DNA of 64,000 nucleotides. Origin: an uncultured virus (IMG/VR IMGVR_UViG_3300028591_000105) (lineage: Duplodnaviria > Heunggongvirae > Uroviricota > Caudoviricetes). Below the pieces are notes generated by a model. It worked only from the letters and a program-made list of their open reading frames with translations, was not told the origin of the DNA and ran no database searches. Made by a program: the position numbers and the translations under genes. The DNA lies in IMG/VR virus record IMGVR_UViG_3300028591_000105. The stretch is one strand, 5' to 3'. The stretch's first letter is position 1. Each line of letters starts with the position of its first letter. Below are positions 6,451-36,270 of this stretch, in pieces.

Positions 6451-7008
6451 TTAAAATAAACTATTTTCTTCTTGAACTTTTTTCGCCGCAGCCTTCATGT
6501 CCTTAATTAATTGCATATATTCTTTCTTTTGCTCTTCTTCTGTTTTAGTCTATATCGTTTTAGCTTTTTCTAAAAATTTCTTTAATAATTCACTATCATA
6601 AATCTAAATTACTTGCCCAATTTTATTGGCTTCTTGTCTTAAAGTTTCAATACTTATTCTTCTATCTATAGGAGATGAATAAAACTCAAAATGATTCTTC
6701 GGTTTTTCTTCTATATATCCTTTATCAATAAGTTCCTACTTTGCCTTACGATATGTACTTTCTGCTAGTCCATAACTATTCTAAAAATCTTTAGGGCTTA
6801 ATACAAATTCCCAACCATCTTCATTTTCAACTAAGTACAAATATAATTTAAAGGCTGATGGGGTTAAACTCTTCGCCGCCTCTCTTATTTCTTCAATACC
6901 TACATACATAAACTTCATTCCCTCCTGTTTATATTTCGGCTTATTTATTCTTCCAAATTTCTAATTTGGACTACTATTAAAAGTCCTTAAAAAATCATTT
7001 GTATTCAT
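6451..7008 (-). CDS. Winged-helix DNA-binding protein, possible replication initiator/regulator
   Basis: SLTPSAFKLYLYL...GLAESTYRKAKQELIDKGYI wHTH pattern (TAG=Gln); adjacent to iteron-like repeats. Confidence 0.6.
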
Positions 7009-7014
7009 ATAATC

Positions 7015-7113
7015 ACCATTCCCATTGTATTATCCATTCCTTTTTATAAATAAAGTAGGAAGGAGGGTGGGAATGGTTAAACCCTCAGAGTGGCCGACTC
7101 TTTTCTTCCTACT
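7015..7113 (-). ncRNA. Candidate cis-regulatory leader RNA (3-way junction, anti-SD loop)
   Basis: Stems 7054-62/7105-13, 7063-68/7081-86, 7087-91/7097-7101; 7068-77 is a perfect complement of RBS region 7015-24. Confidence 0.55.
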
Positions 7114-7140
7114 ATTTATAAGTGATAAAATTATAGAGAT

Positions 7141-7400
7141 ACTCTAAAAATTTGCGCTAAAAATTTGCGATATTTTTCTGCTTAACTCTATCAATATGGA
7201 ACACTATCTATTTTGATAGAGAGTTCTAAATTTAGCAAGAACTCTATCAATTTATGCTAGTAACTCTCTATTTTTAGAACAATAACTCTCTAAAAATGGA
7301 ACAGTGACTCTCTAAAAATATAATAGAGAAATAAGAATAATAAGAATAAATAAGAATAAAATAAGAATAAAATAAGAATTTGAAAGCTAACGCTTTCAAA
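7141..7400. repeat. Iteron-like 22-bp-phased repeats plus AT-rich tandem repeats; candidate replication origin
   Basis: ACTCT motifs at 7241, 7263, 7285, 7307 (also 7141, 7185); five AATAAGAAT repeats at ~7329-7379; hairpin ttgaaagc-taac-gctttcaa. Confidence 0.55.
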
Positions 7401-7490: not shown

Positions 7491-7580
7491 CTACACTTTG
7501 CGCCGCCACCCTAGTAAATTTTCTTAATGTGAAATTTTACTATATCGACTCTAAAAAATTGCTGCGCCGGCGCTAAGTAA
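7491..7580 (+). repeat. Dispersed ~80-bp element
   Basis: tacactttgcgccgccaccctag...aatgtgaaa...gctgcgccggcgctaagta; colinear with 17621-17709. Confidence 0.75.
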
Positions 7581-9056: not shown

Positions 9057-9130
9057 TGCCGCCCTAGAGTTATTGTGCATTTTCAACAAAAAATCTCACT
9101 AAAATTCTACGCGCCGGCGCAGAGTACTGA
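9057..9130 (+). repeat. Dispersed ~80-bp element
   Basis: gccgccctag...ttgtgcattttcaacaa...gcgccggcgcagagtactga; colinear with 9697-9788. Confidence 0.7.
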
Positions 9131-15983: not shown

Positions 15984-17057
15984 TTAGATACTAACAGGAG
16001 TAACTGTTTTGGTAACATCAGAAGCAGTGCCCTGAGTAATGCTACCATCTGGAGTATAGTTACCAGAAGCAGTAAGTTCATCCCCAACTTTAATTGCACC
16101 GGTAGGAGTACCAGAAACACTAACAGTACCAAGAGTTTGGGTAAATGTAGGCTGAGATACAGTACCTTCGGGAGTACCAGTAACTTCAATATTAGCAAGT
16201 GTACCTGTAAATGTAGGCTGAGATACAGTACCCTCAGGAGTACCAGTAACACTGACAGAACCACCAGTCTGAGTGAAAGTAGGAGACTCATGAAGTTCAG
16301 CAGTAACACTTGTTATAAAAGTCTTAGTGCCAGTTAAAGAAGGTAATGAGCCTCCATCAAAAGTAAGCGCAGTAAAACTTAGATTCTCATTAGATTCATC
16401 TACAGAAACAGAATATGCTGTTCCATTTAATTGTGCTACAGCTCCAGGATTAAGACCTACTGTTCCAGTAGTAGTGTCATCCACATCAATGGCTGGTTTA
16501 GAAATAGTTCCTGTTACAGTGGCCGTACCAGTAGAATTAAGAGGAGTACCATTAAAAGTAGGTTGAGATACAGTACCCGCAGGAGTAAAAGAACCTGTAG
16601 CTGTTAATTCATCACCAGTAAATGTGGGCTAACTAACAGTACCTTCAACACTAGCATTACCAGTAGAATTCAATGAATTACCAACAAAATCAAAATGTGT
16701 TGAAGTACCTTCCCATGTTGGATTTCCATACTCCTTAACTGTCACGCTACCTTCGTCAACAAAAGCAAAATCTCCTAAGTTTTCAAGAGAAACATCACCA
16801 AATTCTGCCCAAGCGTTACCATTAAAAATGAACTCCTTATCACCTTTAATTACTATATCGCCAGCGACAGCAGTTACATCTTCTCCATCAATTACAATAG
16901 TAGATATAGTAGAACCATTTACAATGTTTGAAGTTGTAACGCCAAGAAACTGAGTAAATTTTGCCATATCGGCAATTTGATCTCTCGCCTCTTTATCCTT
17001 TACCAGATACACATCTGAGCCAAAGGTTAATTGTGAAATATACTTATTTTCAGGCAT
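15984..17057 (-). CDS. Thr/Gly-rich repeat virion/tail fibre-like protein
   Basis: GTVSQPTFTG repeats (66-bp DNA repeat at 16141/16207); one copy has TAG at the Q position. Confidence 0.75.
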
Positions 17058-17620: not shown

Positions 17621-17709
17621 TTACACTTCACGCCACCACCCTAGGAAAAATCCTAATGTGAAAAATTGCTATAAGTCCTCTAAAATTTTGATGCGGCGGC
17701 GCTTGGTAC
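17621..17709 (+). repeat. Dispersed ~80-bp element
   Basis: ttacacttcacgccaccaccctaggaaaaatcctaatgtgaaa...gcggcggcgcttggta. Confidence 0.75.
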
Positions 17710-34927: not shown

Positions 34928-35996
34928 TTATATAACCTCCTATCTTATCTAATATATAATTAGAATCTATTTTATTTTTATCTTTATAGCAGATTTCAAT
35001 TAAAGGAATATTATTCTTATGACAATATTCTCTTTTCTTATTATCATAAATTTGCTATTGTATATATCCTTCTTCACCACCCCAAAAGTCCACTGGTTCA
35101 TAATGCTATCTCCCCTAATATTCTATTAAACATTTTAATGTATCATTTTCAAAAATAGCAAAATCAAAGCGTAAAACCTTATTTGTTCCAATTAAATCAG
35201 GAAAACTATATTCTTGTTCATATTTAATGTTCATTTTTTTAAAAAGTTCCTATAAAAATACAGTTGATTTTGTAGTATTTTTGCAGCCACAGCTTGAATT
35301 TTCTTTTATACTCTAAGCTGTTCTGTAGCAGATATTTCCACAACTGCATTGACACTTATAAACAATATTGCGGAATTTTCTTTCTTCTGTCTCTTCAATT
35401 ATTGTAAGTTCACCAATTTTATCTCCTTTCTAAAACTTTTTATTATTACTTGCTTTAATTTTCTATAAACATCCGCAACTTTTAGTATTTCCACTAATTA
35501 ATTTATTTGTCTATACATAAGTTATATTGCCACAGTCGCATATGCATTTAAGTTTAGGTATCCCATCAATATATTTTATTTCTGGCGAAACTGTTAAAAG
35601 CCCAAATTTTTCTCCTACAATACTCTCTCCTCCTTTTCTTTTACCCAAACCACTCCTTGAATGTTCTTTGGCTAAGCAACCACAACTTTTTGTGTTGCCA
35701 CTTTTTAAATTTTCTGTTGATACATTATATTTTATATTGCCGCAGTCACATTTACAAAGCCAGCGACGTGATTGATTTATACTTCCTTCATATTCAATAA
35801 CAACAAGTCTTCCAAATCTTTGTCCTATCAAATTATAGTCTCGTTCTTTAAAATCACACCAAGAGTATTTTTTCTTTATATCTCTTGTAATACTTCTATT
35901 TGAATATCCAATTTTATTGGCAAATTCAGTTGCAGTTTTTGACGAATAAAAAATTTCTTTAAGTTCTTCTTCTGAGAAACGTTCCCATCTTTTCAT
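34920..35996 (-). CDS. Putative free-standing endonuclease (CxCDCG/SCGC repeats + Vsr-like domain)
   Basis: Three Cys modules, then LRFDFAIF...LIEYQGRQHY; paralogue of 2198-3070. Confidence 0.75.
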
Positions 35997-36004
35997 TATA
36001 AATT

Positions 36005-36099
36005 CACCTCACTTGAATTTCCCTCACTTTTAATTAATAAATATTAAATGGGGCGGCGTGAGGTGCCATCGGGTTAATTACTCCCTACCCCATTTAATA
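36005..36099 (-). ncRNA. Candidate cis-regulatory leader RNA (3-way junction, anti-SD loop)
   Basis: 12-bp outer stem 36042-53/36088-99, two inner hairpins; 36058-65 is a perfect complement of SD 36005-12. Confidence 0.55.
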
Positions 36100-36187
36100 A
36101 AGTCAAAATAAAAAGAGGACTCTTTAGTCCTCTATAATAAGTGAAATATTTATTCTATTTATCTAGCTTTTTAGTACGCAGCTTTGA

Positions 36188-36270
36188 TTACACTTTACGC
36201 CGCCACCCATATCTAGTATAAATAATTAAACTCATACTAGATTTGGTAGGTGCGCCGGCGTGAAGTGTAG
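36188..36270. repeat. Palindromic dispersed element
   Basis: tacactttacgccgccacc...atctagtat...atactagat...ggtgcgccggcgtgaagtgta. Confidence 0.7.

Follow-up and report, generated by a model that had tools for sequence, protein, structure and literature searches.

What does a leader RNA do when the loop of one of its hairpins is the exact complement of the ribosome-binding region ahead of the gene, and to which known system, if any, does it belong? These questions are raised by a locus in a 64,000-nucleotide stretch of DNA (the window) from an uncultured virus of the Caudoviricetes, IMG/VR record IMGVR_UViG_3300028591_000105. An original prediction, made from the letters alone, had described there at 7015-7113 a leader with a 9-bp stem enclosing two hairpins, a perfect 10-nt complement between the loop of the second hairpin and the region before the AUG, and a second copy of the same topology, in unrelated sequence, near 36005-36099. 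All three features are present on the minus strand, the first copy (site 1) as a three-way junction at 7113-7054 and the second (site 2) with its targets running down to 36005, and what the two copies have in common is indeed structure rather than sequence. We found that both leaders are real and non-random, that site 2 is a true member of a family of leaders accompanying homing-endonuclease genes and that site 1 is its architectural twin, lacking the junction nucleotides of the family. Our best explanation, which we consider moderately probable, is that both are cis-acting 5' leaders of the homing-endonuclease-cassette kind, which would mask the ribosome site through a pseudoknot between the loop of one hairpin (P3) and a distal target (T2).

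Two leaders of one architecture

At site 1 (Table 1), the 9-bp stem P1 can grow to 16 pairs if a 2-nt bulge is allowed (7120-7105 with 7062-7047). It encloses the hairpins P2 and P3, with AAA instead of the UAG of the family and without a J2/3 segment, and the tail that follows its 3' arm (P1') is U-rich, six of eight nucleotides being U. The distal target T2 overlaps a Shine-Dalgarno-like GGUGA (7017-7013) lying 6 nt ahead of AUG 7008, from which open reading frame (ORF) P0001 is read, and a second, upstream target (T1) had been overlooked in the original prediction; the complements of this P3 loop are the strongest we have seen. Site 2, whose gene P0002 starts at AUG 35996, is built of P1, UAG, P2, a shortened J2/3 (GAU), P3, P1' and a U-rich tail (again 6/8 U), and its P3 loop has two targets as well.

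Table 1. Coordinates of the two leaders, their genes and neighbouring features in the window
Feature	Position	Strand	Remarks
Site 1 P1, 5' arm AGUAGGAAG	7105..7113, extendable to 7120	minus	minimum-energy folds; inverted repeat
Site 1 P2, AGAGU-CGGCC-ACUCU	7101-7087	minus	loop contains 4-nt palindrome GGCC
Site 1 P3, GAGGGU-UUAACCAUUCCC-ACCCUC	7086-7063	minus	folds; inverted repeats
Site 1 anti-ribosome-site sequence ACCAUUCCCA	7077-7068	minus	within P3 loop
Site 1 P1, 3' arm CUUCCUACU	7054..7062	minus	minimum-energy folds
Site 1 U-rich stretch UUUAUUUAU	7053-7045	minus	directly after P1 3' arm
Site 1 proximal target T1 GGAAUGGAUAA	7040-7030	minus	10/11 pairs with P3 loop; duplex -11.3 kcal/mol
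Site 1 distal target T2 UGGGAAUGGU	7024-7015	minus	10/10 pairs with P3 loop; duplex -17.3 kcal/mol
Site 2 three-way junction	36043..36098	minus	minimum-energy fold; R1 29.6 bits; R2 32.1 bits
Site 2 P1	36098-36087 with 36054-36043	minus	
Site 2 P2, GGG-AGUAAUUAA-CCC	36085-36071	minus	loop has palindrome UAAUUA
Site 2 P3, GGC-ACCUCAC-GCC	36067-36055	minus	
Site 2 loop sequence CACCUCAC	36065-36058	minus	complementary to both targets
Site 2 proximal target T1, GUGAGGG	36027-36021	minus	6-7 nt complement; duplex -11.0 kcal/mol
Site 2 distal target T2 GUGAGGUG	36012-36005	minus	Shine-Dalgarno region; 8 nt; duplex -15.0 kcal/mol
Terminator-like hairpin and U run	36114..36133	minus	just upstream of site 2
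ORF P0001	6451..7008	minus	185 aa, 5 in-frame TAGs; winged-helix, replication-initiator-like
ORF P0002	34920..35996	minus	358 aa, 8 in-frame TAGs; homing endonuclease
Two CTAAAAATTTGCG repeats	7144-7169		
Four iteron-like repeats, 22-bp spacing (TAACTCTMT...GGAACA)	7183-7309		direct repeats upstream of site 1
Four AATAAGAATA repeats, A/T-rich	7330-7369		direct repeats upstream of site 1
G+C-rich inverted repeats	36270-36190, 17700-17620, 9130-9060, 9780-9720, 7575-7495, 220-150	minus	also L002:1180-1260

When the core of each leader was folded in isolation, the junction was the minimum-energy structure in both cases, at -22.6 kcal/mol for site 1 (z -3.6, with 2/200 shuffles as good) and at -20.3 kcal/mol for site 2 (z -2.9, 0/200). 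The combination of such a junction with a complement of at least 8 nt ending no more than 25 nt from the AUG appeared in 0/3000 dinucleotide shuffles of site 1 and in 1/3000 of site 2. Comparing the stretch from -22 to -1 with the upstream leader at 133 ORF starts placed the site 1 complement (10 nt) second in length; that of site 2 measures 8 nt, and the other complements of 8 nt or more are all A/T-rich. A relaxed scan of the window tied to ORF starts yielded no third copy, complements of at least 8 nt being found at sites 1 and 2 only. A generic descriptor matched 16 places in the window. Two of these, at 16605+ and 43995+, lie within genes and have 9-nt complements; they were taken as chance.

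A family of leaders ahead of homing-endonuclease genes

Two 14-mers of the P2 loop led to at least 237 IMG/VR loci, of which many are chance matches and many others show the full plan; a 14-mer alone is worth about 18 bits, and for this reason only full-length matches were used. MAFFT alignments put the 3' halves of the leaders out of register, so alignments based on covariance models were used instead: R1, built from three loci of other phages, and R2, a second model, which finds several copies per genome (3, 5, 4, 3, 2, 2 and 2, with up to five in one 80-kb phage) and none in four large contigs reached through chance 14-mer matches. Both models recognize site 2, R1 with 29.6 bits (E of 1.2e-5 in 348 kb) and R2 with 32.1 bits (E of 1.8e-6). 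In the same 348 kb, R1 also scores the loci L012 (29.9 bits) and L041 (46.9 bits), the latter being independent of the R1 seed because it was retrieved through protein homology only, and with filters off the leader at locus L002 receives 30.0 bits. Site 1 fails the family model and R2 does not find it in the window at E<=0.01, so that the two window copies are not equal members.

The common plan consists of P1 (7-11 bp), UAG, P2 with the loop (G)AGUAAUUAA, YGAnAAG, P3 with a variable loop, P1', a U-rich tract, T1 and T2, the last lying at the Shine-Dalgarno element or the AUG and, in some members such as L234, covering the AUG itself. In an alignment of 33 members 96.9% of the cells pair, versus 68.2% after shuffling and 40-58% with a slid partner, and changes on both sides occur in 14 of the 16 pairs; all three helices covary. 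The loop and its targets change together as well. Among 30 distinct members, the longest complement of the P3 region in its own 80 nt downstream has a mean of 6.87 nt, against 5.04 nt for 870 cross pairs with the downstreams of other members, and a second target of at least 6 nt is found in 24 of the 30 as compared with 49 of the 870. The targets follow the loop, loop and target reading, for instance, CACCUCAC/GUGAGGUG at site 2, UUAGUCCU/AGGACUAA in L012 and GGUUCC/GGAACC in L041. A U-rich tract (at least 6 U among 8 consecutive nt in the first 14 nt beyond P1') is present in 25/30 members, versus 1/30 at the control position +45..+59.

These data bear on the proposal that the repeats (CCATTCC once, GGAATGG twice) act at the level of DNA, as operator sites for a protein, or are chance matches. 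In its favour, the arms repeat one another exactly as DNA, and the gene that follows codes for a putative DNA-binding protein, but the word differs at each locus (GGAATGG, GTGAGG, TATGGG, AGGACTA and others) and always matches the P3 loop of its own leader, the helices covary as RNA with G-U pairs included, and the plan is reproduced only in the none and one of 3000 shuffles given above. A DNA-level origin is, in our view, highly improbable.

Conservation is high at the junction nucleotides UAG and GAnAAG and at the G-C pairs that close the P2 loop, and the rest of the leader covaries among members. Simple masking needs none of these nucleotides, and their conservation is what a riboswitch-like or protein-responsive switch would call for, in which they would form, together with P2, a pocket deciding between pairing with T1 and with T2. 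Such a switch nevertheless seems quite unlikely: no Rfam riboswitch family matches, the architecture is retained at site 1 and in the leader at L058, where those nucleotides are absent, and the P2 loop is free to vary as long as it stays palindromic (see below), which fits RNA-RNA pairing better than a fixed pocket. Moreover, the family serves unrelated nuclease folds, in phages whose hosts do and do not use Shine-Dalgarno sequences, so that no common ligand suggests itself. Of the translational switch originally predicted, translational control stands as the best reading, and we found nothing pointing to a ligand or protein trigger.

The same plan is found in the Rfam family int-alpA (RF02996), a candidate structured RNA typed there as 'Gene; sRNA', whose consensus line runs through an 8-bp P1, UAG, P2, CGAAAAG, P3 with the loop AaaCCuUua, CU, P1', a U7 run and AgGG. 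Two differences stand out: the P2 loop is of 9-10 nt here and short in the Rfam consensus, and the context here is that of homing endonucleases, while the Rfam name points to integrase and alpA genes. The int-alpA motif reportedly comes from the 2017 survey of 224 motifs by Weinberg and colleagues, whose main text (PMC5737381) does not contain the name, and to our knowledge its function has not been proven experimentally. None of the sequences tested reaches its gathering threshold of 35.8 bits. At E<=10 the int-alpA model has no match in the window regions 6980-7140 and 35960-36130 or in L002; at E<=1 it matches one of 16 family loci (L205, 31.9 bits, below the threshold), and it finds nothing in four phage genomes holding 15 R2 matches. 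The whole window is likewise without a match to any Rfam family at gathering thresholds. The family is therefore an uncatalogued relative of int-alpA, alike in plan and below the threshold of its model, and current annotation does not see it because the int-alpA model misses it. The view that the element belongs to no named family holds insofar as both sites escape the catalogued model, but the large phage family of site 2 shares its plan with a named one.

As to the genes that follow, endonuclease families of the PHROGs database are matched by 15 of 25 downstream ORFs, most of which are fragments of 41-67 aa, mostly N-terminal, and the endonucleases are of several unrelated kinds; one ORF matches a family of unknown function only and nine match nothing. 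Among the ORFs reached through the DNA pattern alone the proportion is 13/23. The family thus goes with homing-endonuclease genes and not with winged-helix genes as such. The converse approach, from the protein, examined the upstream regions of 80 HNH homologues: L012 and L041 carry clear homologues of site 2, in which the P2 loop is conserved and P1 and the loop/target words covary, L058 has a junction that lacks the nucleotides of the consensus, and several others, L023 and L066 among them, have plain hairpins over the Shine-Dalgarno element. Two other conserved, structured-looking sequences, GGCUAACGGGRAAARCUAA and AUCGGUUAAAGGC...GUYAAGACCGAGGAAAGA, were noticed about 100 nt upstream of HNH homologues, in L003, L005 and L007 and in L006 and L008-L011, and may be other leader types or parts of introns.

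Probable masking of the ribosome site and possible pairing between leaders

In the reading that we favour, P1 would close the three-way junction and P3 would present a loop complementary to two tandem downstream sites. Pairing of this loop with T2 would form a pseudoknot hiding the ribosome-binding site, so that little protein would be made, and pairing with T1, a look-alike acting as decoy, would leave the ribosome site free; the balance between T1 and T2 would then set the level or the timing of expression. At both window sites T2 is the stronger partner (duplex energies in Table 1), and the ribosome site should consequently be masked at equilibrium, with perhaps a short open period due to the fact that T1 is transcribed first. 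The full leader of site 2, when folded to minimum energy, has its loop sequence paired with the ribosome site in place of the junction. To judge from the sequences and the computed energies, throttling of translation is probably the function.

Homing endonucleases are toxic if over-made, and we know of little study of their restraint in phages other than T4. The leader described here is small, modular and present in several copies per genome, it is rewired for each gene by the change of one loop and two targets, and it would as such constitute a natural, portable translation throttle. Site 1, which keeps the working parts without the conserved junction nucleotides, shows which parts are likely essential. 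By functional analogy, the nearest studied case is that of phages T4 and Aeh1, in which RNA structures sequester the ribosome site of homing-endonuclease genes; Edgell et al. 2010 describe hairpins over the ribosome site of I-TevI, I-TevII, I-TevIII, segB and mobE (PMC2988022). The logic is the same, the ribosome site of a selfish nuclease gene being hidden and its translation kept low or delayed (PMC2988022). The T4-type elements are described there as simple stem-loops including the ribosome site and relieved by an internal late promoter giving shorter transcripts (PMC2988022), whereas here the masking sequence lies in a hairpin loop of a three-way junction and would act as a pseudoknot, the target is duplicated, the junctions are conserved and the second loop, that of P2, is palindromic. 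There is no sequence relation between the T4-type hairpins and the present leaders.

Several observations weigh against masking as we describe it, above all at site 1. Folding z-scores of the whole leaders are weak, at -1.0 for site 1 and -1.8 for site 2. Against R1, site 1 obtains only 3.3 bits (E of 0.76; filters off, 161 nt, minus strand) with P1 alone aligned, and it has neither of the family junctions UAG and GAnAAG. The covariation counts come from a model-fitted alignment, and most members were collected through the P2-loop 14-mer, which makes that loop and the sample biased. Across the family T1 is often as long a match as T2 or longer, so the dominance of T2 is not general and the balance differs by locus. 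Simple masking also leaves the conserved junction nucleotides and the P2 loop unexplained. Downstream of site 1, AUG 6918/6909 after AGGAGG is a second possible start of P0001. The related phage described in the next section has coding sequence where the site 1 leader would be, leaving site 1 without comparative support. A metagenome scan with P0001 gave six loci, the best cut at residue 49 and the others 33-41% identical over about 40-55 residues, and a genome scan gave one weak locus; none of these loci was usable.

The P2 loop itself carries a feature of its own. A 6-nt Watson-Crick palindrome is found in 11 of 12 distinct P2 loops, versus 1.1 expected, and none of 20,000 simulations exceeded seven; the palindromes are of seven sequences, UAAUUA, UUGCAA, UAGCUA, UGAUCA, UCAUGA, AGUACU and GCUAGC. 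The lone exception among the 12 has CAUG, and the loop of site 1, CGGCC, has only the 4-nt GGCC. UAGCUA occurs again in L354, which has a thirteenth distinct P2 stem-loop, and in the leader at L058, which departs from the consensus. Most of these loops are of 8-11 nt, the core is usually flanked by purines (AG-UAAUUA-A, AA-UUGCAA-A), and copies within one genome differ in their palindrome. The hexamer is not the by-product of a longer hairpin, because its axis of symmetry is offset from that of the P2 stem, and it cannot pair inside its own loop; loop-loop kissing between two leaders is therefore the natural reading, which suggests that leaders may pair with each other. A kissing loop with a purine-flanked 6-nt palindrome is known from the dimerisation initiation site of HIV-1. 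The P2 loops resemble it in their self-complementary, purine-flanked core of six nucleotides, which changes and yet stays palindromic, and differ in that the dimer here is a predicted one, that the RNA is an mRNA leader of a bacterial virus and not a packaged genome, and that the 5-nt loop of site 1 offers no more than GGCC. In the literature on int-alpA or homing endonucleases together with kissing, pseudoknot or three-way junction, we found nothing on a palindromic P2 loop or on this leader. The palindrome would provide a concrete and testable reason for both the puzzling second hairpin and the duplicated target.

One scheme that would make use of these palindromes combines an attenuator with a sense small RNA. 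P1 and the U tract would form an intrinsic terminator after the promoter and give a short leader RNA of about 60-75 nt, which would dock through a P2 kissing dimer on the leader of the read-through mRNA, with its T1 and T2; the two P3 loops of the dimer would fill T1 and T2 together and turn translation off. This scheme extends the masking explanation and does not exclude it, and we regard it as possible, if on the unlikely side. It is consistent with the frequency of the U tract after P1' in the family and at both window sites, with the 'Gene; sRNA' type and the U7 run of int-alpA, with the palindromes, L354 and L058 included, and their diversity within single genomes, with the presence of two targets per loop, which suits a 2:2 stoichiometry, and with -10-like or Bacteroidetes-type promoter motifs seen 5-8 nt before P1 in many members. 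These promoter calls were made by eye, however, the outer pairs of P1 are rich in A-U, a consensus terminator scan flagged neither window site, a kissing contact of six A/U-rich pairs is weak under nearest-neighbour rules, and the palindrome of site 1 has the four letters of GGCC only.

A more general form, which we hold to be unlikely, is that the leaders act as pairs, P2 kissing bringing two of them together and their P3 loops jointly filling T1 and T2. The partners would be a prematurely terminated short leader and a read-through mRNA, or two mRNAs, and the result would be a sense-sense, concentration-sensing shut-off, which would be private to each cassette because every copy in a genome has its own palindrome and its own loop/target word. 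If it were true, site 1 would be a full-strength module on a gene that has lost its nuclease domain, beside origin-like repeats, and a selfish-gene throttle would have been taken over by a DNA-binding or replication gene of the phage.

Downstream genes, the related phage and the surroundings

The DNA of the window is phage-like, and most of its long genes use TAG as a sense codon. Read as glutamine (TAG=Q), it yields 134 ORFs of at least 70 aa, among them one frame of 1268 aa with 15 TAG codons and one of 990 aa with 20, as compared with only 88, much shorter ORFs under table 11. Up to about 38.9 kb the minus strand is the coding one, and beyond that point the plus strand; both leaders lie on the minus strand. 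A tRNA scan of the 64 kb found no genes; TAG is thus used as sense in a window without a suppressor tRNA, and the leader-controlled genes P0001 and P0002 are among those with in-frame TAGs (Table 1).

P0002 matches the endonuclease families phrog_374 (2.5e-43), phrog_559 (9.1e-36) and phrog_9084 (2.9e-28). P0001, which the original prediction had named a winged-helix gene, supports that name weakly: its HTH_36 match of 23.7 bits is under the Pfam cut-off of 25, and the PHROGs call it a replication-initiation protein (phrog_270 with 2.5e-9, phrog_428 with 1.2e-6). Pfam finds no nuclease domain in it. From the masked AUG 15 codons are read before a TAG (codon 16) that is also present in a related phage. 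The codons just upstream of a shared MKFMY differ synonymously between the two phages, an indication that this stretch is translated and that translation starts at AUG 7008.

This relative, of 179 kb, is the only one that IMG/VR gave, and a distant blastn of GenBank phages with both regions returned no match. Its homologue of P0002 is 41% identical and preceded by a junction of the same plan in different letters; the L002 leader has P1 AUAGAAGGA, UAG, P2, GACAAG, a P3 with the loop GCCCAUAA and two UAUGGG targets, the second at a GGGAGG Shine-Dalgarno element. In all, family leaders of the relative precede this HNH homologue (30.0 bits) and two GIY-YIG genes (39.9 and 30.7 bits), and the start context of site 1, GAUUAUAUGAAU, is identical to that of one of the leader-bearing GIY-YIG genes. 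The two GIY-YIG cassettes adjoin genes for tRNA-Leu(UAA) and tRNA-Glu(UUC) (L325:1566-1782), and the HNH homologues of L032 and L034 likewise have sequence resembling a tRNA 3' end on their upstream side.

The orthologue of P0001 in the relative (L001:1216-2025) combines a GIY-YIG domain (Pfam, 43.1 bits) and HTH_36 in one frame, the two parts being joined through a TAG conserved in both phages, and it aligns with P0001 from residue 14 with 59% identity over 172 aa. With TAG=Q the frame may yield a fusion protein; were TAG to act as a stop early in infection, there might be two products instead. The simplest history suggested by these comparisons is that site 1 was a nuclease-cassette leader and would now head the DNA-binding remainder of such a gene.

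For site 1 alone, one might think instead of a replication-control element, belonging to a module of origin and initiator and setting the dosage of the initiator. Loop-to-RBS (ribosome-binding site) pseudoknots control some plasmid rep genes, such as repZ of the IncI-alpha plasmids, and here P0001 matches replication-initiation PHROGs, the masked AUG opens a run of 15 codons closed by a TAG, and four iteron-like repeats and four AATAAGAATA repeats lie 70-360 nt upstream. Placed beside an initiator-like gene, the repeats of 7183-7369 look like a replication origin. Yet a homing-endonuclease gene 29 kb away has a leader of the same architecture, related leaders precede such genes in many phages, the GIY-YIG domain at the N-terminus of the orthologue fits a nuclease-cassette origin better, and the relative has several paralogues of the P0001 winged-helix type. 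An antisense promoter or RNA did not turn up, no search having been aimed at either. We give such a replication element a low probability and prefer masking of the nuclease-cassette kind for site 1 too.

Further features concern transcription and repeats around the leaders. The word TATAAATA, which we take to be the T4 late-promoter word and regard as a lead only, shares positions 7120-7113 with the 5' arm of the extended P1 of site 1, upstream of the masking sequence, and overlaps this arm in L002 as well. As an argument for promoters, TATAAATA and ACTTATAAATAG were dropped, not being clearly enriched (29 versus 21 expected and 37 versus 28.6). The TAGA-N19-ACTT site originally reported ahead of the leader is there, at 7146-7118 for site 1, with a counterpart at 36165-36137, which stands upstream of the terminator-like hairpin of site 2 and not directly before the junction. 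The form TAGA-N18-20-ACTTAT has seven copies in the window versus 1.8 expected, and it is intergenic and upstream of minus-strand genes in three cases, these two and 39075-39048 (minus); it is a candidate promoter word.

A G+C-rich heptamer, GSCGSCG (GCCGGCG, GGCGGCG, GCCGCCG), occurs 89 times in this A/T-rich window versus 1.3 expected, both within genes, often as Ala/Gly codons, and between them (for example at 36253-36260, 17694-17701, 9112-9119, 7565-7572 and 163-169), with one copy (36052-36058) falling in the 3' portion of the junction at site 2. Finally, long-range, G+C-rich intergenic inverted repeats set GCGCCGGCGC-like words against GGYGGCGGCGTGAAGTGTAAT-like words about 50 nt apart (Table 1). 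One of them lies upstream of the nuclease cassette in both the window phage and the related phage, and these repeats may be a phage-specific promoter or structured RNA.

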